A DNA stretch of 35,189 bases from a virus, in the UHGV virus genome UHGV-0070883; one strand, given 5' to 3'. Made by a program: the position numbers and the translations under genes. Positions within the stretch are counted from its first letter, which is position 1. Each line of letters begins with the position of its first letter. The notes below the pieces were generated by a model. That model searched no databases. It was given only the letters and a program-made list of their open reading frames with translations, and had not been told where the DNA came from. Positions 114 to 27,363 of the stretch are shown piece after piece.

Positions 114-150
114 CTGTACATGGAGCTGTACATGATATAAAAAATGTACA
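114..150 (+). promoter_or_regulatory. Three TGTACA palindromic boxes (114-119, 127-132, 145-150) with TATAAA at 135-140, overlapping the integrase start codon; candidate operator and promoter for int
   Basis: ctgtacatg is directly repeated twice, and a third tgtaca spans the int ATG at 144. Confidence 0.3.
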
Positions 151-1340
151 GCATGGCAGGAATCATCAAGAGAAATAACAAATGGGTTGCCGTCTTCCGA
201 ACCCTGGACGGCAAAGAGATCAGAAAAACAACCCGCGTTGACGTTGTTCCAAAGGTTATTCCTCCCGGCGTCAATAAAAGAGCGTTGCTGTCTCAAAATG
301 AAGCCCGGGCTCGCCTTATTGCTGAAGAACTGGAAAACGGATATAAGACGGGCTTCGTAGACTCGAATCGTCTTAAAGCGATAGCGGGGGGAGATATCCA
401 GTCATTCAGCCTTGGAAGAAAGGTGGTGAGTGTTGGCGCCTATTTGAAGGAATGGCTGCAATCAAGATCGGGTAAGATTCAGGCCTATGAACGGGACCGA
501 AAGGCAATCCAGCAGTTTATTGCCTTTTTAGGAAATGATGGGGGACAATCAATCTCGTCTGTGAACAAAAACGTTGTCAGGGAGTTTTCCGAGGTAGAAA
601 TGGAGCGTGTTTCATCGGGTACAGTATCCAGATACCTTGAATCTCTATCATGTGCTTTTAATCAGGCCGTTGAAAAAGAATTGATTAGCTCAAATCCTTT
701 TAGAGGGGCAAGGCTGGACAAGAAAAAGAAACAGGCTGATAAGCAGGAACGGGGGGCTTTCACTGTAGAAGAAGTCAAAAGGCTTGTAGAGATTTTGCCG
801 GACGAATGGCCGGACATGATAAGGGTTTGTCTTTACACCGGAGGCCAGAGGCTGGGAGATATTGCAACGCTTAAATGGGATCAAGTAAATCTGGAGGGCG
901 GCCTGATCTCCATGACCACCCAGAAAACCAAGCGGCGCATGAACAAGCCCATCATTGGACCTCTGAAAGAGATTTTGAAAGAAAGGGAAAAGTATTCTAT
1001 CAATGAATTCGTATTCCCATTGGCGGCCATGAAACATGCTCAAGCGGGCGGGAAGTCCAGCAAGTTGTCTCTCGAATTTACAGGGCTTTTGAAAAAACAT
1101 GGCATCATTTCCTCGGATGGAATGAAAGCGGAAGGTGATAAGCGTGTTCTATCCGAGAAAAGCTTTCACAGTTTGCGGGCTACAGCAGTAACGATTTTAA
1201 GATTGGCTGGAGTACCTGCGGATTTGTGCCGCTTCATCGTGGGTCATGATTCCGAAGAGATTGAGAGGGTTTATTTCCGCCCTGATTCACAGGATGTGGT
1301 TCACGCCATGGAAGAAATCTCAAGCAAGATTATTTTGTAA
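144..1340 (+). CDS. int: Tyrosine-type site-specific recombinase (phage integrase)
   Basis: 398-aa ORF. The C-terminal catalytic signature HSLR...GHDSEEIERVY matches the tyrosine recombinase H-x-x-R / H / Y motifs, and the N-terminal SAM-like domain is typical of phage integrases. Position next to the tRNA 3' end supports the call. Confidence 0.9.
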   Translation: MYSMAGIIKRNNKWVAVFRTLDGKEIRKTTRVDVVPKVIPPGVNKRALLSQNEARARLIAEELENGYKTGFVDSNRLKAIAGGDIQSFSLGRKVVSVGAYLKEWLQSRSGKIQAYERDRKAIQQFIAFLGNDGGQSISSVNKNVVREFSEVEMERVSSGTVSRYLESLSCAFNQAVEKELISSNPFRGARLDKKKKQADKQERGAFTVEEVKRLVEILPDEWPDMIRVCLYTGGQRLGDIATLKWDQVNLEGGLISMTTQKTKRRMNKPIIGPLKEILKEREKYSINEFVFPLAAMKHAQAGGKSSKLSLEFTGLLKKHGIISSDGMKAEGDKRVLSEKSFHSLRATAVTILRLAGVPADLCRFIVGHDSEEIERVYFRPDSQDVVHAMEEISSKIIL

Positions 1341-5628: not shown

Positions 5629-6396
5629 ATGAATAAGAATAACAACGTAAACACAACTAACACAGAAGACCAAGCCAATCAAGCCCCATGTGCGTCCAAG
5701 CCGATCGCCCCCATGCTGGTGGAATTGGCGGAAAGGATGGGAGTCAACCCCTCCCAGGCATACATGACCATTAAAGCGACCATTGCGCCCAAAGCCACCA
5801 ATGAGGAACTCATGGCCTTTTGCGTCGTCGCCAACCAATACAAACTGAATCCCTTCCTCAAAGAAATTTACGCGTTCCCAGGAAAAAACGGGGGGATAGT
5901 GCCTATTGTCGGCATCGACGGATGGCTGAAACTGATCAACACGCATCCGAAATTTGACGGCATGGACGTGGAAATGAGCGGTGACGGGGAGTCATGCACT
6001 TGCCGAATCTACCGAAAAGACAACCAACACCCGACTGTCATCACGGAATACTTGACCGAATGCAAGAAGAACACGGATCCGTGGCGTCAATGGCCGCGGC
6101 GTATGCTGCGCCACAAAGCCATCATGCAGTGTGGCCGCGTGGCCTTTGGATTCGGAGGCATCTATGACGAAGACGAAGGGAAAGACGTCGCCGGAGGAAT
6201 GAGAAATGCAACGCCGGAAAAAACAGACGGCCCACCCGAAGGGGAAACTCCGTGGAACAACGCTCCGTCCCCTGAAGAATTCCGTGAAGAACCCCGGGAG
6301 GCCCTGCCGGAACCTGAACAGCAGGGCGACTTTATTCCGGGCCTGGAAATTCCGGCCGCGAAAGAATACGCAACCGCCAACATGGAGGACTATTGA
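5629..6396 (+). CDS. recT: RecT-family single-strand annealing protein (phage recombinase)
   Basis: 255 aa. Conserved RecT-like blocks LNPFLKEIYAFP, GIDGWLKL and RMLRHKAIMQCGRVAFG, as remembered for the RecT/Redbeta-like family. It pairs with the downstream YqaJ exonuclease. Confidence 0.8.
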   Translation: MNKNNNVNTTNTEDQANQAPCASKPIAPMLVELAERMGVNPSQAYMTIKATIAPKATNEELMAFCVVANQYKLNPFLKEIYAFPGKNGGIVPIVGIDGWLKLINTHPKFDGMDVEMSGDGESCTCRIYRKDNQHPTVITEYLTECKKNTDPWRQWPRRMLRHKAIMQCGRVAFGFGGIYDEDEGKDVAGGMRNATPEKTDGPPEGETPWNNAPSPEEFREEPREALPEPEQQGDFIPGLEIPAAKEYATANMEDY

Positions 6397-6397
6397 A

Positions 6398-7087
6398 ATG
6401 AGCCTGTCCAAGAACTGCATTGTCTACGAAAACATCTACCAGCGGTCGGAAGCCTGGTTTAAGCTGCGTGCCGGCCGTCTGACCGCGAGCAACTTTAAGC
6501 GGCTGCTGACGCCCACGGGCAAGAAACCACAGCCCAGAACGCACCAGGAAAGGGGCCCTTGGGGAGAACTCATCATTGATCTGTGCTGCTCCTTCCTGCG
6601 GCCCGATGAAATCAAGTGGGAAGGCAACCGTCATACGGACCAGGGAGAAGAACTGGAACCGGAAGCCCGGGACGAATTCAGAACCATCACGGGAATGACC
6701 GTCAAGGAAGTGGGGTTCGTTCTCTGCCAGGACGGACCGGTGGGATGCAGCCCCGACGGGCTCATCGTTGACCAGTCCGGCGACTACATGGCGGGACTTG
6801 AAATCAAGTGTCCTCTCTCTAAGACTCACGCCCTCTACCTGCTCAATGGCGTTCTGCCTCCCGAATATCGACCCCAGGTTCACGGATCCATGGCGGTGAC
6901 GGGGTTGCGGACCTGGTATTTCTTTTCCTACTGCCGAGGCTTGCGCCCCTTTTTGCTCAAAGTGGATTGGGACGAATACACCGAGCGAATCAACGAGACG
7001 CTGAACGAATTTAAGAGGGAATACCGTGATCAATTTGATGTAATCATGCCTCAAATCCGCCCGGAAATAGAAGGGAGGGCGGCATGA
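6398..7087 (+). CDS. YqaJ-like viral recombinase-associated exonuclease (lambda Exo/PD-(D/E)xK fold)
   Basis: 229 aa from the ATG at 6398. The N-terminal SEAWFKLRAGRLTASNF is the hallmark YqaJ motif, and GCSPDG...LEIKCP gives the PD...E-x-K catalytic core. It starts 2 nt after the recT stop. The 293-aa track ORF from 6206 overlaps recT and is rejected. Confidence 0.8.
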   Translation: MSLSKNCIVYENIYQRSEAWFKLRAGRLTASNFKRLLTPTGKKPQPRTHQERGPWGELIIDLCCSFLRPDEIKWEGNRHTDQGEELEPEARDEFRTITGMTVKEVGFVLCQDGPVGCSPDGLIVDQSGDYMAGLEIKCPLSKTHALYLLNGVLPPEYRPQVHGSMAVTGLRTWYFFSYCRGLRPFLLKVDWDEYTERINETLNEFKREYRDQFDVIMPQIRPEIEGRAA

Positions 7088-7428
7088 GAACTCGAGCAAA
7101 AGCGATCCACCGCCCCGGCGTGATGAATAAAACAGAAGCCGCCTATGGATTTCACCTTTCTAATCTTCAAGCCAAGGGAGAGATAAGGGAATTCAAGTTT
7201 GAGGCCGTCAAACTGATCCTTGGGAGCCGATGCTCCTACACGCCCGATTTCATGGTTGTCCGTCCTGACGGCACCCTTGAATTCCACGAAGTGAAAGGCT
7301 TCTGGCGTGACGATGCCCGGGTAAAAATCAAGGCGGCGGCTGATAAGTTCCCCTTTGTTTTTGTAGCTGTTCAAAAAACGAAAACAGGCTGGAACGTGGA
7401 AATCATACAAGAAGGAGAATCGAAATGA
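7084..7428 (+). CDS. PD-(D/E)xK nuclease-fold protein (DUF1064-like; possible Holliday-junction resolvase or recombination nuclease)
   Basis: 114 aa. SYTPDFMVVRPDGTLEFHEVKG matches a PD-x(n)-E-V-K catalytic signature. ATGA overlap with the exonuclease gene. Confidence 0.45.
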   Translation: MRTRAKAIHRPGVMNKTEAAYGFHLSNLQAKGEIREFKFEAVKLILGSRCSYTPDFMVVRPDGTLEFHEVKGFWRDDARVKIKAAADKFPFVFVAVQKTKTGWNVEIIQEGESK

Positions 7429-7781
7429 AAACGCTTAAATGTCCATTATGCGGAGAAGAATTAGCGCCGTCTGTACAAAGATACGGATTTGAATACGTTT
7501 GCTGGAAGTGCAAATGGCAAACCGCTTCACTCTGCTCCACCGAGCAAGGAGCGAAAAAAGCAGCTCAAAAACTAATCTCCAAGTTCCCACCCATCATGCG
7601 GTTAAATCAAGGTGATAACGTCCTGATATGGCTAAGGGATGACATATATACAGTGCTTGGTACGGATTTAGAAGCTGGAAAAATCCATCTCCAAGACGTG
7701 TATGGTGATGCAGATAGTTACTATCCTACCAACATCAAAAAATGGCCGTGGGAATTCGAACAGAAAGGAGGGGATGAATAA
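7425..7781 (+). CDS. Zinc-finger hypothetical protein (118 aa; CPLC...CWKC)
   Basis: ORF with two CxxC pairs near the N-terminus. Confidence 0.5.
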   Translation: MKTLKCPLCGEELAPSVQRYGFEYVCWKCKWQTASLCSTEQGAKKAAQKLISKFPPIMRLNQGDNVLIWLRDDIYTVLGTDLEAGKIHLQDVYGDADSYYPTNIKKWPWEFEQKGGDE

Positions 7782-8035
7782 TGAAACGGAACCCTCACAT
7801 TATTGTCCAGCAGGTCTGCCCCATGAAGAAAACCGACGATGGGAAATATGAAGTTCAGGCCGCGATTGTGCACCACAAAGGGATTATCGCCCGCTATCGC
7901 ATGGAGTACCCCACGAAACGGCATGCCCGGTGGGCGCAGCACCTTATTTGCACGACAAAAAATCATACACGTCTGCGAGTATTTGATGAATTAAGGGCCA
8001 TCATTGACGGAAAGGAATCTAGTAATAATGCTTGA
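7781..8035 (+). CDS. Hypothetical protein (84 aa)
   Basis: ORF joined to its neighbours by ATGA overlaps at both ends. Confidence 0.5.
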   Translation: MKRNPHIIVQQVCPMKKTDDGKYEVQAAIVHHKGIIARYRMEYPTKRHARWAQHLICTTKNHTRLRVFDELRAIIDGKESSNNA

Positions 8036-8183
8036 TATTTTGGAACTTGTAGTTTTTTTGGCAACCCTTGCCGCATATGGCTATTACCTTTATTTGGCGG
8101 GTAAGGTTAAAGGTTTTCTAGATGCTATAAGAGTTTTTATAGAATACAGCGACGATAAATCAAGAAAGGATGATAATAAATGA
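8028..8183 (+). CDS. Small membrane peptide (51 aa; MLDILELVVFLATLAAYGYYLYLAGKVKGF...)
   Basis: Below the track cutoff. Start overlaps the upstream gene by 8 nt. One hydrophobic helix. Confidence 0.3.
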   Translation: MLDILELVVFLATLAAYGYYLYLAGKVKGFLDAIRVFIEYSDDKSRKDDNK

Positions 8184-8300
8184 TAATTATTGATTTATTT
8201 GATATTGTCACGGTTTCAGTTTTGATCGTGTTGGGGATTATTTTAATTATCCAATATATTATATTCAAAATAAAAGGAAAATGAATGCTGAACAGAAAGC
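8150..8300 (+). repeat. Segmental duplication, copy A (micropeptide gene plus 5' end of the Cys4 gene); paralogous to 9215-9363
   Basis: About 85% identity across about 140 bp by eye, including the identical block tcagttttgatc/tcagttttaatc ... atccaatatattatattcaaaataaaag. Confidence 0.7.
8180..8284 (+). CDS. Hydrophobic micropeptide, copy A (34 aa; MIIIDLFDIVTVSVLIVLGIILIIQYIIFKIKGK)
   Basis: ATG overlaps the upstream stop, and its own stop overlaps the ATG of the Cys4 protein. A near-identical paralogue lies at 9239-9343. Confidence 0.4.
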   Translation: MIIIDLFDIVTVSVLIVLGIILIIQYIIFKIKGK

Positions 8301-8610
8301 TTTTTTTGAGTACGGCGGAGCATGGGAACAGGTTGTTTTAACTCACAAGGGTATCAGGTCGACCGTTAAAGCGTTGCCCGGGAAAACTCGCCAAAAACTT
8401 TTAAGGCAAGCTAGAAACGAGACTCATCAACATGAGCTTGTGCTTAACGCTTGGCAGAAACGAGCCGTATGCCGGGCGTGGGTGCATCCTATGCAAAGGA
8501 GATGCTCTAATTGTAAGTATGAAATGTCACAGTACAAATGGTGTACGGCGTGCGCCAATGAAGGATTGCCTATTTACTGGGAGCCGAGAAAGGAGGCCAG
8601 TAATGATTAA
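8281..8610 (+). CDS. Cys4 zinc-finger hypothetical protein, copy A (109 aa)
   Basis: Motif AWQKRAVCRAW...RRCSNCK...YKWCTACANEGLPIYWEPRKE. It is a clear paralogue of the 9340-9660 product. Confidence 0.6.
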   Translation: MNAEQKAFFEYGGAWEQVVLTHKGIRSTVKALPGKTRQKLLRQARNETHQHELVLNAWQKRAVCRAWVHPMQRRCSNCKYEMSQYKWCTACANEGLPIYWEPRKEASND

Positions 8611-9022
8611 CATCCTCTTATCCGTCAGGCGGCCTTTCTCCGGTTTTATCATGGACGGGGAAAAGAAATGGGAGTTGCGGAAAAACGTACCGCGCTTAAA
8701 AAAAGGCGACTCCGTAACACTGTGGCTTTACGAATCCGGGAAAGACGGGATGCGGGCCATCATCGGCAAGTGCCGTTTAGTTGTCACTGCTTCACTTTAT
8801 TTATATCCTCCAAAGGGGATTTTAGAATTGGCCATTAAGAATGCTTGCGTGACGGAAGAGCACCTGCGGAATTACCTGCCTTGCTATGTCTGGGGCGTCC
8901 AGGACCCCGTGAGGATGCCGACCGCAGTGCCGCTGTCTGACATTGGGCTGACCCGTCCGCCGCAGTCTTGGAAGTACCTTACTGACGAGCAAGCGGCGAT
9001 TTTGGAAAGGAGGTTCGCATGA
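8603..9022 (+). CDS. ASCH-domain (PUA-like fold) protein
   Basis: 139 aa from the ATG at 8603, preceded by AGGAGG. MINILLSVRRPFSGFIMDGEKKWELRKN...GDSVTLWLYES matches the ASCH beta-barrel N-terminal pattern. The 196-aa track ORF from 8432 overlaps the upstream gene and is rejected. Confidence 0.55.
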   Translation: MINILLSVRRPFSGFIMDGEKKWELRKNVPRLKKGDSVTLWLYESGKDGMRAIIGKCRLVVTASLYLYPPKGILELAIKNACVTEEHLRNYLPCYVWGVQDPVRMPTAVPLSDIGLTRPPQSWKYLTDEQAAILERRFA

Positions 9023-9252
9023 AACTGACGCCTGAACAGAAAACTTTTTACCAACTGAAAAGGGCCAGACGGCGGGTCATACGCCAGAACAGTGGGTTCA
9101 AAAACGCCGTCGGGTACAGTTACCGGGGGAGGGTCTGGTGGATTCCGCGGAAATGTTTAGTCAAAGGTATATTCATGCGTAAGGCCTTTAATTTTTTTTT
9201 AGATAAAATAATAGAACATAAACAGAAAGAGAACGAAGATGATAATTGTTGA
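9019..9252 (+). CDS. Hypothetical basic protein (77 aa); its first 8 codons are identical to the start of the 9340 gene
   Basis: ATGA overlap with the ASCH gene. The 24-mer atgaaactgacgcctgaacagaaa at 9019-9042 is repeated exactly at 9340-9363. Confidence 0.45.
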   Translation: MKLTPEQKTFYQLKRARRRVIRQNSGFKNAVGYSYRGRVWWIPRKCLVKGIFMRKAFNFFLDKIIEHKQKENEDDNC

Positions 9253-9363
9253 TTTATTCGATATTTTAATATTTTCAGTTTTAATCATACTTTCGATTAT
9301 TTATATCATCCAATATATTATATTCAAAATAAAAGAAAAATGAAACTGACGCCTGAACAGAAA
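9215..9363 (+). repeat. Segmental duplication, copy B
   Basis: See copy A. It additionally contains an exact 24-mer, 9340-9363, that is also present at 9019-9042. Confidence 0.7.
9239..9343 (+). CDS. Hydrophobic micropeptide, copy B (34 aa; MIIVDLFDILIFSVLIILSIIYIIQYIIFKIKEK)
   Basis: Paralogue of 8180-8284, with the same translational coupling to a downstream Cys4 protein gene. Confidence 0.4.
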   Translation: MIIVDLFDILIFSVLIILSIIYIIQYIIFKIKEK

Positions 9364-9660
9364 GATATTTTGAAGTACGGAGAAGCCCTTGGAATCCTGA
9401 AAGAGCGAAAAAGCCTCATGCGCTTCACGGAAGGCTTCAAGGAATGCGGCGATTACCACGGAGAACCTCGGATAATGTACGGCGTTGAAGATGCCATCCG
9501 TGACGCATGGCAGAAGCGGGCCGCGTGCAGGGCATGGATACCACCTCAACAGCGGGGGTGCTTTACTTGCAAACATGATGGGACCCATTACAAGCTTTGC
9601 GCGCTCTGCCACGGTAAAGGCTGGCCTGTTAGTTGGGAACCGAGAAAGGAGGGGGAGTGA
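9340..9660 (+). CDS. Cys4 zinc-finger hypothetical protein, copy B (106 aa)
   Basis: AWQKRAACRAW...RGCFTCK...YKLCALCHGKGWPVSWEPRKE, paralogue of 8281-8610. Confidence 0.6.
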   Translation: MKLTPEQKDILKYGEALGILKERKSLMRFTEGFKECGDYHGEPRIMYGVEDAIRDAWQKRAACRAWIPPQQRGCFTCKHDGTHYKLCALCHGKGWPVSWEPRKEGE

Positions 9661-10163
9661 AAACCATTCTTGATGCCTGCTGCGGGTCCCGCATGTTCTG
9701 GTTTAACCGCCGCCATCCTGATGTGGTGTTCATGGACCGCCGGGAGGAAACACACACGCTTTGCGATGGGCGCGCCTTGGAAATTAAGCCGGATGTAGTC
9801 GGAGATTTCCGGGCGATGCCTTTCAGCGACGGAACGTTTCGACTTGTCGTGTTCGACCCTCCGCACTTGCTCCACGCCGGGGAATCGTCATGGCTGGCCA
9901 GGAAGTACGGAAAACTGGACCGGGAGACCTGGCGGGAGGATTTGTCCGCCGGGTTCCGGGAGTGTTTCCGGGTGCTGGAGCCGGGAGGAATCCTGGTGTT
10001 CAAGTGGTGCGAGGATCAGATTTCAACGGCAAAAGTGCTGAAACTGGCCAGCCGGGAACCTTTGTTCGGGCACCGCCGCGGAAAGACTATCTTCCTCGTT
10101 TTCATGAAATCTACAACCCCAACTGACGCTTTTTTGATATGCCACGCAAACCAACATCTTTAA
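9657..10163 (+). CDS. Small SAM-dependent methyltransferase, putative DNA amino-methyltransferase (motif I ILDACCGS, DPPH motif-IV-like)
   Basis: GTG at 9657 is preceded by AGGAGG, and the track's 9633 start would overlap the upstream gene. ILDACCGSRMFWF, the acidic residue in VVFMDRRE, VVFDPPHL and RVLEPGGILVF together fit a Rossmann-fold methyltransferase. The target, DNA or otherwise, is inferred only. Confidence 0.45.
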   Translation: MKTILDACCGSRMFWFNRRHPDVVFMDRREETHTLCDGRALEIKPDVVGDFRAMPFSDGTFRLVVFDPPHLLHAGESSWLARKYGKLDRETWREDLSAGFRECFRVLEPGGILVFKWCEDQISTAKVLKLASREPLFGHRRGKTIFLVFMKSTTPTDAFLICHANQHL

Positions 10164-10663
10164 TTCCACGGACGCACCGGGAACTGTGCGAAATAGCAGA
10201 ACGCTGGCTTATGGGAACTAAACGTTGCCGGGTAGCGATCGCTGAACCGAATTGCATTATTACTGAAGAGAGGCCTGACGCCATAGGGTTTGGCGGATAT
10301 GCGAGCGTTCTTGTGGAGGCAAAAACCAGCCGAGCGGACTTTTTGGCAGACCTTAAAAAGCCGTTCCGCATCCATCCTAAAAAAGGAATGGGTATGTATC
10401 GGTATTACATATGCGAGCCGGGAGTCATCACTTTTGATGACGTGCCGGGACTTTGGGGATTACTGTATGTTCTCCCTGGCGGAAGGGTTCGGGAAATCCG
10501 ACCCAGCGGCCGCTTCCCTGATATAAACCGCGCCGCAGAAATAAGCCTTTTGACAGCGTGTCTATACATCCAGAAACCGTTAAAGATCAATACTGTTCAA
10601 GGCAGAAAAATACAGCTCTCACCCACATTTGGCGAAGGAGTAAAAGAGACAGAAGGGTTATAG
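10139..10663 (+). CDS. PD-(D/E)xK nuclease-fold protein (174 aa)
   Basis: EERPDAIGFGGYASVLVEAKTSRADF gives D...E-x-K with typical spacing. It overlaps the methyltransferase gene by 25 nt. Confidence 0.4.
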   Translation: MPRKPTSLIPRTHRELCEIAERWLMGTKRCRVAIAEPNCIITEERPDAIGFGGYASVLVEAKTSRADFLADLKKPFRIHPKKGMGMYRYYICEPGVITFDDVPGLWGLLYVLPGGRVREIRPSGRFPDINRAAEISLLTACLYIQKPLKINTVQGRKIQLSPTFGEGVKETEGL

Positions 10664-13327: not shown

Positions 13328-14635
13328 GTGGAGGCCATCAAGGCGTTGTCCCTCGGCAAGCTGACCCTGGGAGGGAAAAGCGTGGCTCTGGTTGCTCCCA
13401 ACGGATCCGGCAAGACGAGCAACTGCATCGCTCCGGCCATCCTGTACTTCCTTACCTGCTTCCCGCGGGGTCAGGTGCCGGTTACGTCGTCGTCGTGGAT
13501 GCAGGTGGAAAAGCAGCTCTTTCCCGCGCTCCGCCGCTACATGGACAACCCTTTCTTTGACGGCTGGACATTCAACAAAACCGAGATTCGCACGCCGGAG
13601 GGAGGCTTTGCCGTGGGCTTCTCGACCGACAACGCCGGCCGCGCGGAAGGATGGCACCCGAAAATCTCGCCCGACGTGGACCCCGTCTTTTACGTCCTCG
13701 ACGAGGCTAAAACCATCCCGGACTCCATCTTCACCGCCGTTTCCCGCTGCACGCTCTTCCACGCGTTCATTACCTCGTCACCTGGGGCCGATTCCGGCAC
13801 CTTCTACGACTGCTTCCACAAAAATTCATCCCTCTACTACAAGATCCGCGTCAAATACGAGGATTGCCCCCACATTGAGATCAATGACCCGGGCAAGGCC
13901 GAGCGCCTGAAAAAAGAATACGGCGAGCAGTCCTCCTTCTACCGCTCCGCCATCCTCGGCGAATTCACGGACCTCGACGGTCAGTCCGTCATTCCCCGGC
14001 GCGCCCTCATGGATCTGGTCAACAACCCGCCTCCCTTTCTGGACACCGGGGAGACCTGCGGCGGCTTCGACTTCGCGGCCGGAGGCGACGAAAACGTCTT
14101 CGCGGCCGGGCAGGGCAACCGATTCTTCATCGCCGACCACTGGTCGGACCCGGACACCGTAGGAGCGCGCGGACGGTTCCGCCGCAGGGCGTCCGAACTC
14201 GGCATCCCCGCCGACCGCATTTACGCGGACGGAGACGGCCTTGGACTACCCATCATTGACGACTTCCGCGCCGAGGGCTTCCCGGTGCACTCCTACCGGG
14301 GCGGTTTCCCGGCAGACGATACGCAGGCCTTTGTCAACCTCCGCGCCCAGGCGTGGCGGGCCCTGGCCCGAGCCATCGAAGAAAAGGAACTCATCCTCGA
14401 CATTGACGAGGACACGATTGAGCAGCTGGTAGCGCCCCGGCTCCAAACCGACGCGATCGGCCGCGTCAAAATCGAAAGCAAGGAAGACATGGCGAAACGG
14501 GGCGTCCGTTCTCCCGACCGCGCCGACGCCCTCGTCATGGCCTGGCACGCGCGCCGGCACAGCGGACTGGCCCGGACGCTGGGAGCCTGGTACTCACGTC
14601 CCGTGTCATCCAAACGCGCCATCGGGAGATATTAG
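13328..14635 (+). CDS. terL: Terminase large subunit (ATPase/nuclease)
   Basis: 435 aa. Walker A APNGSGKT and Walker B-like VLDEA. It follows terS in the same reading frame, separated by a single TAA, and uses a GTG start. Confidence 0.85.
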   Translation: MEAIKALSLGKLTLGGKSVALVAPNGSGKTSNCIAPAILYFLTCFPRGQVPVTSSSWMQVEKQLFPALRRYMDNPFFDGWTFNKTEIRTPEGGFAVGFSTDNAGRAEGWHPKISPDVDPVFYVLDEAKTIPDSIFTAVSRCTLFHAFITSSPGADSGTFYDCFHKNSSLYYKIRVKYEDCPHIEINDPGKAERLKKEYGEQSSFYRSAILGEFTDLDGQSVIPRRALMDLVNNPPPFLDTGETCGGFDFAAGGDENVFAAGQGNRFFIADHWSDPDTVGARGRFRRRASELGIPADRIYADGDGLGLPIIDDFRAEGFPVHSYRGGFPADDTQAFVNLRAQAWRALARAIEEKELILDIDEDTIEQLVAPRLQTDAIGRVKIESKEDMAKRGVRSPDRADALVMAWHARRHSGLARTLGAWYSRPVSSKRAIGRY

Positions 14636-14682: not shown

Positions 14683-14756
14683 CGCAGGGTGGTGAAACGG
14701 TATCACGCGGGGTTCCTGTCCCCGAGTAGGAGGTCCAATTCCTCCCCCTGTAACCA
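14683..14756 (+). tRNA. Phage-encoded tRNA-Arg, anticodon CCU (reads AGG), 74 nt with encoded CCA
   Basis: Manual cloverleaf:
- Acceptor: CGCAGGG/CCCTGTA, with a C1-A72 mismatch and a G2-U71 wobble.
- D arm: U8 and G9, D-stem GTGA/TCAC, D-loop AACGGTA with A14, G18, G19 and A21.
- Anticodon arm: stem CGGGG/CCCCG perfect, loop TTCCTGT with U33 and G37.
- Variable loop: AGTA.
- T arm: T-stem GGAGG/CCTCC perfect, T-loop TCCAATT with T54, C56 and A58 but C55 in place of U.
- 3' end: discriminator A, then CCA. Confidence 0.55.
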
Positions 14757-15006
14757 CCTTTTCTTTCGCTTCCGGCTCAGGTTCAACGCATTAAAAAATA
14801 TCCTCAACGCCCCGAAGCTGGTCGCCCAACAGGAGACCAGAATCAAGGAGCTGGAGACAGACCTAGCCCGGCGAGCCCTGACGGAACAAAGCCGGCAGCC
14901 CAACCGTCCCCAATGGTACGAGTACTGGGACCCGCTGCAGGGTGCCGACTTGAGCACTCTTGTGGAGGCCAGGAATGAAGCCCGGCGGGGAGCCTTTGCC
15001 CGGCAA

Positions 15007-16140
15007 ATGCTGATCTGGGATGAAATCATTTATTCGGACGGGCTTCTGGGCATGCTCTACTCCCGCTTAATCGAAAGCGTCGCCATGCAGGGCTGGAAGA
15101 TTGACGCCGCGGACGCCAGCCCGGAGTCCCAGCGCCAGAAAAACGCCCTGGAAGAATTCTACCACTCCGTCAACGGGCTGCAGCAGTCTTTTGGACAGCT
15201 GGCTTCCGCCATGTTTTATGGATACGCCCACCTCCAATACATCGAGGATTCATGGGGCCGCCGATTTGAATTCATCCCGCAGCGCTATTGGGTGAGGCCG
15301 GGAGTGTTGAACGAGTGGCAGTTCAACCCACAGTGCTATATCGGCGTCGACACCGGGGAAAGCGTGGAAGACGAAACGCTCGTCGTGATGGAACACCAGT
15401 ATCCCATCCTGTTCCCGGCTGCCCGCGCTTCTTTTGAGCGCAACCACGCAAAAATCACGTGGGACAACCACATGGACCGCTACGGAAGCGCCCCGGTCAT
15501 CATCACCGCCCCCAAGGACGCGAGTCCCGCCGTCATGGACGCGCTGGAACGGGCCTGCGAACAGCTTAAATCAGGCGCCTCTATCGTGCTGCCTCCTGAC
15601 TGCAAGGCGGAACCGCTCAAGGCGTCCAACATCAACGAAAACTATTTTCTCTCGCGCATCAACATGGCCGACAAGGACCAGGTGCGTTTTGTGATGGCCG
15701 GAACCCTGACGGTCCTGAACGAATCAGGATCAGGCACGCTGGCCGGGTCCGCCCATACGGACAGCTGGAATGCGGTGGTATCCGCCGTCTGCTCCAAAGT
15801 GGCGGAAGCGTTCAACACCGCCATCAGCCCGCTTATATTGGGAGACGGCGAACCGCTGGCCCGCCTCCACATCACCTTTGACACCGTCCAGACGCCATTG
15901 CAGAAGGCCGAGGAAATCGCCGCCCTTGCGGACGGAGGCGTCCGTCCGGAGAAAACCGAAATCGAAGAAAAGATCGGCATGTCGATCGAGGACGCCAGGG
16001 AGCCCGTGCCGGCGGCGGCAGTCAACAGGGATGGCCCCGCATCCCTCATTCCGCCCGACGCCTACGAACAGCTGCAGCAGATGATTTACGACGGCCTCAT
16101 GAAAGGATTTACCGATGATCAGTTCCAGACAATTCAATGA
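15007..16140 (+). CDS. Portal protein. Coordinates are given from the first in-frame ATG after the tRNA. The track ORF 14689-16140 overlaps the tRNA, and the true start may be a non-canonical codon between 14757 and 15006
   Basis: Large ORF immediately after terL and before the prohead protease/scaffold gene, with a size appropriate for a portal. No motif-level confirmation is possible without tools. Confidence 0.5.
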   Translation: MLIWDEIIYSDGLLGMLYSRLIESVAMQGWKIDAADASPESQRQKNALEEFYHSVNGLQQSFGQLASAMFYGYAHLQYIEDSWGRRFEFIPQRYWVRPGVLNEWQFNPQCYIGVDTGESVEDETLVVMEHQYPILFPAARASFERNHAKITWDNHMDRYGSAPVIITAPKDASPAVMDALERACEQLKSGASIVLPPDCKAEPLKASNINENYFLSRINMADKDQVRFVMAGTLTVLNESGSGTLAGSAHTDSWNAVVSAVCSKVAEAFNTAISPLILGDGEPLARLHITFDTVQTPLQKAEEIAALADGGVRPEKTEIEEKIGMSIEDAREPVPAAAVNRDGPASLIPPDAYEQLQQMIYDGLMKGFTDDQFQTIQ

Positions 16141-22724: not shown

Positions 22725-24662
22725 GTGGATTTCCAGGGCGATCCCGTCGATATGAGCGGCGTCACCCTGCGCGGAGCCGTCCGCCTCAAGACGGGCGTGA
22801 CGGAGTTCGGATTTTCCCGAGACGACGAGGGCAACGGCGTGATTTCCTGGGAGTCGGTGCCTGCGGGCATGTGGTCCTATGACGTTTTCATGGACGACGG
22901 CAGCGAAGAAAGCCCCCTTCTCTACGGTTGCTTTGTTTCTTCCGGCCGGGTAACGCCGGACTTGCCCGGCGAGCAGCAGGCCGTGGCGGGCGCGGTCGTC
23001 GTGCAGCTGCCGGAAGGAAGCGGTTGCGTGCAGGTGGTGCTTGATAATGCGTCCAGCGCCGCCTGGTACGCGGAACAGGCCAAGAAGTACGCGGAGAATT
23101 TTAGCCTGTCCGTCGACGAAGTCACCACTGGGGAACCGGGGACGCCCGCCGCCGCGGAAGCCGTCAAAGGGGAGGCTGCCGGCTCCTATAAGCTCTCCTT
23201 CACCATTCCCCGCGGGGATGTTGGTCCTCAGGGACCGTCAGGCCCGCAGGGTGAACGGGGTGAAACCGGCCCCGAAGGGCCGCAAGGCCCACGCGGCGAA
23301 ACCGGGGAACGTGGACCTCAGGGAGATACGGGCGAGCAGGGACCGAAGGGAGAGACAGGCCCGGCGGGGCCCCAAGGCCCGGAGGGCCCCCAGGGGCCGG
23401 AAGGTCCGGCAGGACCCCAGGGACCACAAGGGGAAAAGGGAGAGCCCGGGACGCTGACGTCCAACGTCGGCGACGTCAACATCGGGGGAGCCCTGACCGC
23501 TGAATCGGCTACTATCAACGGGCCTCTGGTCGTCAACAACCCGGACGGAAGCGGAAGCGCCGGAACCCTGAATCAGATTTACGGAATCACCAGGTTTTAT
23601 CAGTCCGTTGATCTTCGTTCGGGCGGCTGGCTGCGCGGGACATTCATGGTAGAGACCGGCATCCTGAATATTTCCCAGGGCGCCAGCTTCAACTGCGCGG
23701 GGACATCCACGTTTTCAAGCGCCATCAACGCCAATGGAGGCGTCAACATCCCGCTGGCCGTGGGAGCGCCGACCAATGAATCCGGCGTCAACCGCCTGTA
23801 TGCCGCGGGCATGGGAGGCGCAGCCAATGCTTATACGGCGGCGGCTTTCCTGAATACGGACACGCTGACAACTACCGGCACGGCAACGGTGACTAAAACG
23901 GTTCCCTACCAGATGGCCCGCATAGGCATTTCCGCGGGCGCTCACACGACTATTCAGGCCCCTTTTGAAGGCCCCAGTTCCCAATGGAATTATTCTTCCT
24001 GGGCCGGCTTTTCATTTGTCTGGCGGGCCACGGCCGCGGCGAAGATAACGATGGGCATCGGACGGGGGGCGAAAACAATCAGGACAGACCTTACCACCGA
24101 CTCCTACACGATTATTCCGGGCAATGACCTGGCATTTAATTCCGGGGAGATTCTGGACATCACCTTTGACAACGTGCGCGATACGGCGCGCAACGGCTAT
24201 ACGGTGCGCGTGCGTGAAATTTATGCGCTGACGTCCGCCGATGGATGGCAGGTCAAGACGACGACCAGCTTTATCCCGGCGACGCAAAACGAGCCCGTCC
24301 CGTGGACGGTGTGCAAGATTATTTACCAGCAGCAGACGGTTGCCAACAGCAGCGTTTATGAAAACCTGGGAGGCCTCTGGCTGCTGGTCACGGGGGCACA
24401 GACCAACAACCTGTTCAAGATCGCCACCTGCCGGGGCGTCTCCAATTTTGAGACCGGCGTCGGCATTTCCAGGTGGGTGACGGATGTGATCAACACCACC
24501 AGCGGCACGGCTTCCGTTTATGCGGGGCCCGGAGAATATGCCTACTACCAGCCGGGCAATGTGAACCCCCTCTTTTACGGGTTGAACGCAATAGGAACGA
24601 ATGCCGTTGAATCCGAGGCAACCGCCGCTTTTGAAGATATTAACGTGCCGATAGAATCATGA
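22725..24662 (+). CDS. Tail fibre protein with a collagen-like (G-X-Y)n triple-helix region
   Basis: 645 aa, GTG start. Residues about 164-244 are uninterrupted [79 protein letters not shown]. The C-terminal part is a large Gly/Ala/Thr-rich beta-rich domain. Confidence 0.7.
23214..23456 (+). repeat. Collagen-like GXY coding repeat (period 9 nt, about 27 triplets)
   Basis: Seen directly inside the fibre ORF. Confidence 0.8.
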
Positions 24663-25064: not shown

Positions 25065-25355
25065 ATGAGTACGAATAAAGAAAAAGTGAGTTGGCTGACT
25101 GGTCTCCTGACCGGTTGGGGTATTAAAGAGAGTTGGGCAAAAGTCATTGCCGGAGCTGTGATTGGGGCCTTGGTTGCCGCGGGGATTCTGACGCAACCCG
25201 GCTGCGGCCATTCCGTGGACGTAACGCCGGACAAGACGGTCGTATGCAAGGACGGCTCCTGCCTGGTGCTGGAACCGGGCCATATTTCCTATTCACAGGC
25301 GCAACCCGAAACGGACGTTCCGCCCGTTGTGCAGGTAATTCCTTCCAAGAAGTAA
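25065..25355 (+). CDS. Lysis-associated membrane protein (96 aa): one TM helix, then a Cys- and Pro-rich periplasmic tail; holin- or spanin-like
   Basis: MSTNKEKVSWLTGLLTGWGIKESWAKVIAGAVIGALVAAGIL has one TM segment, followed by four Cys and a PPVVQVIP tail. It sits two genes upstream of the endolysin. The track's 171-aa ORF from 24840 is an out-of-context extension. Confidence 0.4.
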   Translation: MSTNKEKVSWLTGLLTGWGIKESWAKVIAGAVIGALVAAGILTQPGCGHSVDVTPDKTVVCKDGSCLVLEPGHISYSQAQPETDVPPVVQVIPSKK

Positions 25356-25359
25356 CACC

Positions 25360-25611
25360 ATGTGCAAACTCTCCGAAGTGCCGGCGCGTTTCATGGATTT
25401 TGCCAAGGCATCACCCGTGTTTGCCTGCGTCATGCTGTCGCTGGTCATTTGCGGCGCGTCCTGCTGGTACATCGGGGATGTCATGGGACACCATAATGAC
25501 CGGCTGTGTGACCTGATGACCATGCAGACACAGGCCCAGATCGAGACGGCCAAGGCGATTCAGCTGCTTGCCGTCAGAATAGAAAATATAGAAAGGAAAC
25601 TGGAAAGGTGA
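25360..25611 (+). CDS. Lysis-associated membrane protein (83 aa): N-terminal TM helix plus C-terminal coiled coil (i-spanin/Rz-like)
   Basis: PVFACVMLSLVICGASCWYIG is a TM segment. QTQAQIETAKAIQLLAVRIENIERKLE has a heptad pattern. Confidence 0.4.
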   Translation: MCKLSEVPARFMDFAKASPVFACVMLSLVICGASCWYIGDVMGHHNDRLCDLMTMQTQAQIETAKAIQLLAVRIENIERKLER

Positions 25612-26771
25612 TTGCTTCTTATCCCAGACGGTTAAGCTCCCCATGCGCTCTTCCGAGAAAAAAACCTGCCAGTTTCGGATTGCCTTATATGGGCTCAAAA
25701 AATAAGATCGCCGCAGATCTGGTGAATATTTTACCAGAAGGGCCGGTATTTGTTGATCTTTTCGCGGGTGGGTGTGCCATGACTCATGCGGCATTATGGT
25801 CGGGGAAGTGGCCCAGGGTCATCGCCAATGATATTCAGCGGCAATTTCCTGATTTATTTTTTCGTGCGGCAACAGGGCGTTTGACAGATTGTGACCGGAG
25901 GGCTGTTGATCGGGATGAGTTCAACCGCGTGAAAGATCATGATGCGGCGGTCGCCCTCTTATGGTCATTTGGAAATCACGGTGAATGTTATTTATGGAAC
26001 GCAGACCTTGAGCCAGTAAAGTTGGCGGCGCTCCGTATGATCATGTCCGAAAACAGAGAGGACCGTCTGGCCTGGTTTAAAAAATTCATTCAGGGCTTAA
26101 GGGATGCACGGGCTGAATTGAAAAGGAGGAAGGAACAAAGGTCTTCTATTTTGGACCAGATTGACAATATTGAAGAATGGCTCAGAGGTGAGCTGCGCGC
26201 TGCGCTGAAAGCGTCTGGGAAAACTCAAGCGGAGGTAAACCGCCATTTGGGGTCTCAAATGGCGGGTCATTATTTTGGATCCAGCCAATGGGCATTCCCC
26301 ACACGGGAAGAGTTTGAAAAGCTGCGTGAGATTTTGCCAACCTTGCACCCCGTTGATTATTACGGTCAACATCTGCAAAGCCTGGAACGCCTGGAAAGAT
26401 TGGAAAGCCTGGAAAGCCTGGAAAGCTTGGAACGTCTGCAAAGATTGGAAAGCCTGGAAAGCGATGTCTATTTGGATAAGAAATTAACAATTAGCGGGAA
26501 AGATTATACTGAAATAACAATTCCGGAAGGTAGTGTGGTTTATGCCGACCCTCCTTATGAGGGGACGGAAAGATATAAGTCCGGACTTTTTAACCATGAT
26601 CGCTTTTGGGAGTGGTGCCGGACGAGAGATTTTCCGGTATTCATTTCAGAATACAAAGCTCCTTCTGATTTCGTTCCCATATGGGAGAAAGCGAAAACGT
26701 GCCACTTTGCGGCAAATAATAACGCAAAAAAAACGATTGAAAAGCTCTTTGTCCATCAACGGTTTAATTAA
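25608..26771 (+). CDS. DNA adenine methyltransferase, D12 class (Dam family), with an internal in-frame LE(S/R) tandem repeat. The start is uncertain: GTG at 25608 or ATG at 25689
   Basis: N-terminal LPYMGSKNKIAADLVNILPEGPVFVDLFAGGCAM matches the Dam/D12 SAM-binding motif. C-terminal VVYADPPY is the catalytic DPPY motif IV. The gene is lower in GC than its neighbours. Confidence 0.8.
   Translation: MIASYPRRLSSPCALPRKKPASFGLPYMGSKNKIAADLVNILPEGPVFVDLFAGGCAMTHAALWSGKWPRVIANDIQRQFPDLFFRAATGRLTDCDRRAVDRDEFNRVKDHDAAVALLWSFGNHGECYLWNADLEPVKLAALRMIMSENREDRLAWFKKFIQGLRDARAELKRRKEQRSSILDQIDNIEEWLRGELRAALKASGKTQAEVNRHLGSQMAGHYFGSSQWAFPTREEFEKLREILPTLHPVDYYGQHLQSLERLERLESLESLESLERLQRLESLESDVYLDKKLTISGKDYTEITIPEGSVVYADPPYEGTERYKSGLFNHDRFWEWCRTRDFPVFISEYKAPSDFVPIWEKAKTCHFAANNNAKKTIEKLFVHQRFN
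26373..26462 (+). repeat. 9-bp tandem repeat x10 (ctgcaaagc, ctggaacgc, ctggaaaga, ttggaaagc ...) encoding (L-E/Q-S/R)10, in frame inside the Dam methyltransferase
   Basis: Seen directly. Ten contiguous 9-mers with 1-2 substitutions each. Confidence 0.9.
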
Positions 26772-26832: not shown

Positions 26833-27363
26833 ATGAAAATAGCCATTGATATTGGACATTCCAACAACACCGGAGCCCGCGGGAACGGTCTTGAAGAACA
26901 CGCCGTCGCCGTGACGATCGCCGAATGCCTCGCCCCCATGCTGCGGCAGCTGGGGGCCAAGGTGGACGTGATTGACTTTCCGGGCATGAGCAATGCCCAG
27001 GATTTGAACGCCACCATCAAGGCCGCCAATGAAGGCGGCTATGACTTCGGCATCTCACTGCATTGCGACGCTTCCGACAATCCCCAGGCCCATGGGGCCC
27101 ATGTGTGTTTTTACCCGGGCAGCGTCAAGGGCAGCAGGCTGGCCATGTGCATTGCGGAACCTCTTTCCCGCCTGCTTCCCGGCCGGGCCAATACCGTCCA
27201 GTCGCGTCCGGGCCTCGCCGTCCTGAAAAGGACCCGCTGTCCGTGGGTGCTGTGCGAATGCGGATTTATCACCAATCCTGAAAACGCCGCCCTGATGAAG
27301 GACCATCCCGGACGCATTGCCGAATCCATTGCCGAAGGGGTGAAAGACTACCTCAACCAGTAA
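26833..27363 (+). CDS. Endolysin: N-acetylmuramoyl-L-alanine amidase (Amidase_3 family)
   Basis: MKIAIDIGHSNNTGARG...SLHCDAS matches the Amidase_3 IDxGHG and SxHxDA zinc-ligand motifs. Preceded by AAGGAGAA. Confidence 0.8.
   Translation: MKIAIDIGHSNNTGARGNGLEEHAVAVTIAECLAPMLRQLGAKVDVIDFPGMSNAQDLNATIKAANEGGYDFGISLHCDASDNPQAHGAHVCFYPGSVKGSRLAMCIAEPLSRLLPGRANTVQSRPGLAVLKRTRCPWVLCECGFITNPENAALMKDHPGRIAESIAEGVKDYLNQ

Follow-up and report, generated by a model that had tools for sequence, protein, structure and literature searches.

A conserved 34-codon gene for a predicted membrane micropeptide, usually followed by a zinc-ribbon gene, in early operons of Akkermansia phages

The virus genome UHGV-0070883 (35,189 nucleotides (nt); this whole stretch is referred to below as the window) carries an early operon with two units, each composed of a 34-codon gene for a hydrophobic peptide, termed pep34, and a gene for a cysteine-rich protein, termed Cys4. 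The operon section is flanked by a resolvase-like gene and a DNA methyltransferase gene, and the units are separated by an ASCH-like gene and an apparently chimeric open reading frame (ORF), orf77 (Table 1). A first-pass annotation made from the sequence alone had described both units. The two hydrophobic ORFs, pepA and pepB, were present as described, each stop codon overlapping the ATG of the Cys4 gene behind it, and so was the 51-amino-acid (aa) transmembrane (TM) peptide preceding pepA, termed TM51. The signature CRAW...CxxCK...YKxCxxC...WEPRKE was recovered in both Cys4 proteins, which measured 109 aa (Cys4-A) and 106 aa (Cys4-B), against the ~107 aa given earlier. The source is a temperate phage or prophage of Akkermansia that resembles siphophages, and parts of the window displayed ~82 % DNA identity to DTMo-2021a, Chantilly and Chambord, all of them Akkermansia phages. 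The prophages of Akkermansia muciniphila, a gut commensal of relevance to health, are almost unannotated. The present analysis defines pep34, TM51 and Cys4 as three gene families that are linked and uncharacterised.

For pep34, 81 ORFs were gathered from 80 loci by means of Cys4-based fetches, two independent DNA-pattern scans (viral and metagenome contigs) and look-ups of database proteins. For the main type, 14 DNA variants were distinguished, and none had a stop in frame. Among the five other frames, four held one to eight stops in each variant and one, antisense, was mostly open (zero or one stop). The 31 variable sites were split 13/5/13 over codon positions 1/2/3, all substitutions in the helix exchanged one hydrophobic residue for another and the mean ratio of non-synonymous to synonymous polymorphism (pN/pS) was 0.49. 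One variant displayed an in-frame deletion of 6 nt and retained the ATGA overlap. At the base composition of the peptide blocks (17-28 % GC), an open frame of 33 codons would arise by chance with P ~0.03 per copy. The first-pass annotation had made its proposal depend on these frames being kept in homologous phages, and this was the case: neither stops nor frameshifts were encountered and the substitution pattern was of coding type. With good confidence, we regard pep34 as a real and conserved gene; its product is predicted to be a single-pass membrane micropeptide, and many annotations have overlooked it.

An exhaustive search with a profile hidden Markov model among 1.84 billion representative proteins yielded 17 clusters of pep34. 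A diverged subfamily (MIIVDLLDIL.VSL.IVLSFIILIQYIIYKVKRK) was found in phages of 41-42 % GC; in those of 42 % GC, the GC content at third codon positions (GC3) was ~0.41 (hand count) and the same peptide was encoded. Throughout the family, the acidic N-terminus (D5 and D8), S13, the pair Q25-Y26 and a tail of the form K-x-K did not vary. DLFD at the N-terminus and QY were likewise invariant between diverged subfamilies that differed in their DNA. The maximal hydropathy over 17 residues was 2.8-2.9 and, according to the positive-inside rule, the acidic N-terminus is predicted to lie outside and the K-I-K-G-K tail inside. The variability moment of the helix was not above shuffles (P = 0.85), i.e. 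no conserved helix face was detected. The peptide of pepA was identical in contig L130 and 97 % identical in L005; that of pepB was 100 % identical in L030-L033, L086, L091, L099, L108, L135 and L137.

The peptide blocks were AT-rich, with 17-28 % GC vs. ~50 % for the surrounding region. GC3 was 0.21-0.29 for pep34 and 0.27 for TM51 vs. 0.48-0.80 for neighbouring genes, a composition of the kind expected for a phage moron, and pep34 was enriched in the rare codons ATA and TTA, its score on a scale resembling the codon adaptation index being 0.48-0.54. No significant match to Pfam, PHROG, NCBIfam or PADLOC was obtained for pep34, TM51, orf77 or either Cys4, and for the pep34 peptide none of these databases gave a match below E 0.1. 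A literature search returned nothing on the pep34, TM51 and Cys4 ORFs. As a family of small membrane proteins in Akkermansia phages, pep34 had not been described before. The layout FDI...K-x-K-G is shared by pep34 and the TM domain of TM51; an hhalign probability of 0.4 % led us to reject the idea that they are paralogues.

The two units had been interpreted as a tandem duplication with gene conversion. The DNA repeat itself was found, with 83 % identity over 106 nt (8180-8285 vs. 9239-9344) instead of the ~85 % reported; the interpretation did not hold. Positions 7772-8596 (orf84 to Cys4-A) were 99.3 % identical to contig L130 and positions 8587-9402 (ASCH-like gene to the start of Cys4-B) were 97.2 % identical to L086, L099 and L108, so that each unit matched a separate phage lineage. 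Further identity switches were located near 9400, 9500 and 9643. Cys4-A and Cys4-B shared 52 % aa identity, restricted to the C-terminal half, and were far more diverged than the peptide DNA. The complete layout TM51-pep34-Cys4-ASCH-orf77-pep34-Cys4-methyltransferase was unique among ~150 loci, and its halves were found separately elsewhere. Breakpoints coincided with conserved boundaries, namely the gene end WEPRKE/AGAAAGGAGG (WEPRKE/AGGAGG) and the Cys4 5' end ATGAAACTGACGCCTGAACAGAAA. The exact repeat of 24 nt noted earlier (9019-9042 and 9340-9363) was confirmed, and it corresponds to this conserved Cys4 5' end, placed at the start of orf77. Peptide 3' ends and Cys4 5' ends were conserved in all lineages and had not been homogenised within the window genome. 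As judged from these alignments, the two units are a recombinational juxtaposition of two diverged alleles, not an in-situ duplication: recombination at short conserved sequences bordering the genes would have brought together segments of two phage lineages. We hold this mosaic origin, together with the status of pep34 as a gene, to be highly probable.

Similar gene ends starting with AGAAAGGAGG and encoding ...EQKGG or ...EPRKEGE were observed at 7762-7785, 8587-8610 and 9640-9660. They supply the following gene with its Shine-Dalgarno site, are places where similarity to other phages switches and appear to act as a recombination linker. In temperate phages, mosaic recombination occurs at gene boundaries ('linkers'), and morons carry their own promoter and terminator. 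Exchange at short conserved junctions and the atypical composition of the exchanged genes (GC3 0.21-0.29) are shared with these systems. Unlike classical morons, the peptide genes displayed overlapping junctions and no promoter or terminator signal of their own in our scan, being embedded in the translation of the operon, and assignment to this class was rejected.

The first-pass annotation had proposed to search metagenomes for co-occurrence of the peptide and its partner. Among 46 distinct contexts of pep34, the next gene was Cys4 in 28 and TM51 in ten, four were in-frame fusions and four displayed another gene. Where TM51 followed, Cys4 came behind it in all contigs checked but one. Cys4 was adjacent or one gene away in at least 38 of the 46 contexts, pep34 standing directly before Cys4 or before TM51-Cys4, and the exceptions are described below. 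The upstream neighbour of pep34 varied (at least seven genes) and the downstream one was nearly constant. Two pattern scans that were independent of Cys4, among viral and metagenome contigs, detected pep34 only in this kind of phage.

Seen from the Cys4 side, the association was looser. The upstream gene in 44 distinct Cys4 contexts was pep34 in 11, TM51 in four and an ordinary soluble gene in 29 (RusA, the ASCH-like gene, a 62-aa protein or a Zn-ribbon protein). Obligate coupling, as claimed at first, must be abandoned: Cys4 without an upstream peptide in 29 of 44 contexts is the very situation that had been named as speaking against it. What remains of the proposed peptide/partner pair is frequent adjacency and the existence of in-frame fusions. 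On the available contigs, coupling of pep34 to a Cys4-family gene is the usual state and fusion an occasional one, and the pairing is not obligate.

Fusions of pep34 in frame with a Cys4-type N-domain were encountered in proteins P0137, P0141 and P0142 (L145-L148), a Rosetta-stone arrangement. Several contigs carried these robust fusions; for P0137 there were 15, drawn from several samples. P0141 has isoleucine in place of the internal methionine, which implies that the downstream domain can be made only as a fusion. Protein P0147 displayed the N-domain of the P0137-type fusions followed by a Cys4 zinc ribbon. A fusion of TM51 with pep34 (P0165) was found on one contig and hints at a joint action of the two peptides. 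The in-frame fusions, P0165 included, are situated at A-runs, and the A-rich junction GAGAAAAAAATG (AAAAGAAAAATGA in the window) could in principle permit slippage.

Signals for translation initiation differed according to the gene preceding Cys4. Behind other genes, the duplex energy with the anti-Shine-Dalgarno sequence had a median of -11.9 kcal/mol; behind pep34, Cys4 was preceded either by AAAGGA at 3-nt spacing (-5.8 kcal/mol) or by no site (-1.1 kcal/mol, Cys4-B). Genes for pep34 were themselves often preceded by AAAGGAG or AGGAGG. When present, pep34 or TM51 occupies the position behind the Shine-Dalgarno site and leaves Cys4 with a weak one or none. This weakness suggests termination-reinitiation at ATGA as the most likely way for ribosomes to arrive at Cys4, in which case both products would be made together. 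All gene junctions from 7084 to 10663 overlap and are of ATGA type in the ORF map, and coupling is thus not special to the pep34-Cys4 pair.

Family Cys4 was large, with at least 199 homologue clusters, all unnamed, and a best identity to Cys4-B of 86 %; the few clusters with a named source organism came from Akkermansia or an uncultured phage. Cys4-A is composed of a helical N-domain (M..EQKAFxEYG), an AWQKRAxCRAW motif, a CxxC-x9-CxxC ribbon and the WEPRKE tail. As a correction to the signature described at first, four of the five cysteines form this ribbon; the cysteine of CRAW was not invariant in the family. Positions C74, C77, C87 and C90 were conserved to at least 90 % among 26 members, as two CxxC knuckles of a zinc ribbon should be. 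The Pfam domain DZR_2 matched at E 0.062, short of the cutoff. The AlphaFold2 model of Cys4-B displayed a helical hairpin and a C-terminal ribbon, with a confidence score (pLDDT) of 69.7 (57-74 in the C-terminal part). Its Foldseek comparison with the PDB gave no significant match, the best being a Gfh1/GreA coiled coil at E 0.9, and the Cys4 profile found nothing below E 0.36 among PDB sequences. A secondary-channel factor of DksA/TraR or Gre type was considered and rejected, with no match to Pfam zf-dskA_traR and Foldseek E values of 0.9-7 for Gfh1/GreA. Protein P0084 (183 aa), which gave a long match to Cys4, was discarded as a fusion candidate, being an over-extended ORF call.

Two or three Cys4 paralogues were present in several phages. 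The gene identified most often directly after Cys4 was a methyltransferase; ASCH and other genes were encountered as well. In the Cys4 family, including proteins P0144, P0145 and P0147, the N-domain was conserved and the C-domain hypervariable and exchangeable, the latter being sometimes replaced by a non-zinc domain (...NKINRWTSLDFRNIWRVEDELELYPSLSEA...). Hypervariable C-domains and multiple paralogues per phage are reminiscent of arms-race proteins.

Concerning function, the best-supported reading, which is offered tentatively, is that pep34 serves the Cys4-family protein as its anchor in the membrane or as a partner. This role appeared the most likely because pep34 occurs fused in frame to a Cys4-family N-domain. 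TM51, pep34 and Cys4 would constitute a small shuffled accessory set within early operons of temperate phages infecting Akkermansia. At an early stage of infection, pep34 would tether the Cys4-family protein to the inner membrane on its cytoplasmic side, and the complex might then serve in host takeover, exclusion or anti-defence. The complete explanation, comprising a real gene, a mosaic origin, coupling and the anchor or partner role, has in our estimation about an even chance of being correct. A bolder form of it regards pep34 and TM51 as detachable inner-membrane anchors whose partners, often present as several paralogues in one phage, combine a conserved helical N-domain with a hypervariable and swappable C-domain, be it a zinc ribbon or another domain, and serve at the membrane in an early arms-race role such as counter-defence or exclusion, the ATGA coupling and perhaps slippage at the A-run setting the ratio of free to anchored protein; this form is speculative and seems improbable. 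If pep34 does anchor a hypervariable zinc-ribbon protein, this would be an unusual split design for an early phage protein, and a function would be exemplified for one of the many small membrane proteins of gut phages that await study. Otherwise, there is still a conserved 34-codon gene and a clean case of module shuffling at gene boundaries.

Several observations weigh against the anchor or partner role. Cys4 does not need pep34, about two thirds of its contexts being devoid of a membrane peptide. In L140-L142, TM51 and pep34 are followed by a 147-aa protein that is not Cys4, and in L143 and L144 pep34 precedes a 40-aa Cys-rich miniprotein. After pep34 in L105 and L133, only the first 11 codons of Cys4 survive, joined to a methyltransferase, which marks the conserved Cys4 5' end as a recombination junction. 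The fusions P0137, P0141 and P0142 all came from a single phage lineage and are situated at an A-run. Another pep34::Cys4 fusion, in L120, contains one extra A in a homopolymer with respect to a sibling contig and was discounted as a probable sequencing error because the same project shows further homopolymer frameshifts. The AlphaFold2 model of the P0137 fusion, one long helix with a predicted TM-score (pTM) of 0.32, was uninformative. The last 36 nt of pep34 were almost invariant, synonymous sites included, which points to a cis-acting constraint or a recent spread and not to constraint at the protein level. Finally, adjacency could be an inherited gene order, kept since the ATGA overlap leaves no room for recombination. 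As a separate observation, the methyltransferase-like protein of L105 and L133 (358-783) displays a DPPY motif and an N-terminus, MKITPEQKAFY, made of the 11 Cys4 codons.

An alternative that we find rather unlikely makes pep34, with or without TM51, an autonomous early effector acting on the membrane, which might exclude superinfecting phages, inhibit a membrane protein of the host or depolarise the membrane mildly, with adjacency to Cys4 reflecting conserved gene order only. It would agree with the persistence of the TM51-pep34 pair before a non-Cys4 gene in the distant L140-L142, with the P0165 fusion, with the many Cys4 genes devoid of peptides and with a codon usage and GC3 as atypical as in accessory morons; furthermore, the cytoplasmic part of pep34 comprises only ~5 residues, so that any specific contacts must be made within the membrane. 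Against such an effector stand the striking asymmetry of the neighbours, almost solely Cys4 or TM51-Cys4 downstream of pep34 and at least seven genes upstream, and the tolerance of fusions to the Cys4 N-domain, in P0141 even obligatory; searches for exclusion, holin or toxin families gave no match. The near-invariant last 36 nt would agree with a pep34 ORF that works mainly in cis, where it would take the Shine-Dalgarno site and use rare codons and reinitiation at ATGA to throttle or time Cys4 translation, with the peptide as a by-product. Weak or absent sites before Cys4, the enrichment in ATA and TTA and a 3' end predicted to be unpaired all go in this direction. The variable middle of pep34 nevertheless keeps its hydrophobic residues and spares codon position 2, DLFD and QY do not vary even between diverged subfamilies, TM51 or non-Cys4 genes can follow the same peptide, and it is retained as the N-terminal part of a fusion protein. 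A role chiefly in cis is judged quite unlikely.

Two further explanations were given very little credit. The AT-rich blocks might be non-coding elements (promoter, nucleoid-protein site or small RNA) with an incidental open frame, as could be suspected from their GC content within an operon of ~50 % GC and from the antisense frame that is mostly open as well. However, promoter-like and terminator-like sites were no commoner than in shuffles, folding z-scores ranged from -0.7 to +2.2 on both strands, no better than shuffles, and Rfam gave no match for the pep34 blocks. The frame was open in all variants, the sole indel was in frame, substitutions were of coding type and the homologue from phages of 42 % GC encodes the same peptide with a GC3 of ~0.41. 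The analogy with membrane-active toxins or holins drawn in the first-pass annotation, i.e. pep34 as the toxin of a type I toxin-antitoxin system or as a holin or antiholin, fared no better. Size, single TM helix and charged C-terminus do resemble toxins of Fst/Hok/TisB type and small holins. Against this, pep34 lies inside an operon and overlaps with both adjoining genes, displays no promoter, terminator or structured antisense signal of its own and matches no toxin or holin family in Pfam, PHROG or NCBIfam. Lysis genes are found elsewhere: an Amidase_3 endolysin (26833-27363, E 1.4e-29) and two TM ORFs (25065-25611) form a lysis region ~17 kb from pep34. Both candidates were rejected, the holin for its place outside the lysis cassette and the lack of a PHROG or Pfam match, and the type I toxin locus, despite its small single-TM product, for the lack of a separate transcription signal, antisense structure or family match.

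Known systems offer partial parallels to the anchor or partner role. AcrZ, MgtS, KdpF and CydX are small membrane proteins that bind larger partners and modulate or anchor them. Like pep34, they comprise ~30-50 residues, one TM helix and a tiny soluble part, and are often coupled to the adjoining partner gene. They differ in that their partners are transporters or oxidases, not a soluble phage zinc-ribbon protein, and they share no sequence relationship with pep34, whose partnership is suggested by gene order and fusions alone. Surveys of small proteins are available for comparison (10.1101/494179; PMC11364881). The Hok, Fst, TisB and BsrG toxins as well as small holins and pinholins share with pep34 a short hydrophobic helix, a charged end and frequent occurrence in prophages; in contrast to them, pep34 has no antisense or promoter signal, is not located beside the endolysin and belongs to an overlapping early operon.

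Com of phage Mu is a small zinc-finger protein with four cysteines, whose gene overlaps the downstream DNA-modification gene Mom and which activates Mom translation. It is considered here as a lead only. Cys4-B similarly overlaps the start of a DNA methyltransferase (GTGA, 9657-9660) and a direct Cys4-methyltransferase layout was found in ~20 other loci, but Cys4 stands just as often before ASCH or other genes, shares no sequence similarity with Com and, unlike Com, has membrane-peptide neighbours. Protein p16.7 of phage phi29 is a membrane-anchored early protein that organises phage processes at the membrane. Its N-terminal TM anchor and cytoplasmic helical nucleic-acid-binding part recall the pep34::Cys4-N-domain fusions, DNA binding being putative for the latter; anchor and soluble part are mostly separate genes here and no homology was detected.

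Table 1. Coordinates of the peptide-zinc ribbon units, their neighbours and landmark genes in the window
Feature	Position	Strand	Basis or remark
Integrase	144-1340		Landmark gene
RecT	5629-6396		Landmark gene
Exonuclease	6206-7087		Landmark gene
Zn-ribbon protein (CPLCG...)	7425-7781	+	Weak match to Lar restriction-alleviation family (TIGR03655, E 0.043)
orf84	7781-8035	+	Between Zn-ribbon gene and TM51
TM51, 51-aa single-pass membrane peptide	8028-8183	+	ORF call
pepA (pep34 allele A, 34 aa, MIIIDLFDIVTVSVLIVLGIILIIQYIIFKIKGK)	8180-8284	+	ATGA overlaps: TM51 stop/pepA start, pepA stop/Cys4-A start
Cys4-A, 109 aa	8281-8610	+	ORF call, motif analysis
Gene-boundary sequence AGAAAGGAGG..., putative recombination breakpoint	8587-8610	+	WEPRKE tail and Shine-Dalgarno site of next gene
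ASCH-like gene, 139 aa	8603-9022	+	Separates the two units; phrog_3136, E 8.5e-18
orf77, apparently chimeric ORF, 77 aa	9019-9252	+	Cys4 start, unrelated middle, TM51-like tail
pepB (pep34 allele B, 34 aa, MIIVDLFDILIFSVLIILSIIYIIQYIIFKIKEK)	9239-9343	+	ATGA overlap of stop with Cys4-B start
Cys4-B, 106-aa zinc-ribbon protein	9340-9660	+	Stop overlaps GTG start of methyltransferase
S-adenosylmethionine (SAM)-dependent DNA methyltransferase	9657-10163	+	phrog_954, E 9.5e-80; Methyltransf_25, E 3e-7
Large terminase	13328-14635		Landmark gene
Portal	14689-16140		Landmark gene

The smaller neighbours of the two units displayed recurrent arrangements as well. TM51 consists of an acidic N-terminus, a TM helix, a K-x-K-G stretch, an amphipathic helix and a charged tail, and was assigned to no Pfam or PHROG family. 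Its homologues were located directly upstream of Cys4 or beside pep34 in both orders, and one of 53 aa was found in a distant phage group of 42 % GC (E 1e-26). A protein-database search returned three TM51 clusters only, probably because such short ORFs are rarely called. In orf77, the first eight codons are those of Cys4 (the 24-nt repeat), the middle is unrelated and the C-tail KQKENEDDN is TM51-like; the ORF as a whole appears chimeric. A relationship between the C-tails of the 51-aa and 77-aa ORFs had been announced and does exist, in weak form (five sequences searched with the TM51 profile, E ~0.005). The orf77-pep34 arrangement was seen again in many contigs at 90-99 % identity. An unrelated third TM peptide of 29 aa (MNEYILWNLIVVAPVFLIIYIIIYGLKQR) was observed in L028 (2415-2504), directly before Cys4, in a phage with three Cys4 paralogues.

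The ASCH-like protein gave weak matches to ASCH, DUF3850 and DUF7513, and its gene directly precedes Cys4 in other phages. It also matched the PADLOC candidate defence protein PDC-M11B (E 7.7e-10). The weak Lar match of the Zn-ribbon protein and the methyltransferases hint at an anti-restriction or counter-defence role for the region. A second DNA methyltransferase, of the D12 class (N6-adenine), was detected within the late/lysis region at 25608-26771 (E 2.3e-14) and contains a run of LESLER-like heptad repeats (LQSLERLERLESLESLESLERLQRLESLES). Among the late genes, a 645-aa protein (22725-24662), probably a tail fibre, displayed a long collagen-like Gly-X-Y stretch.

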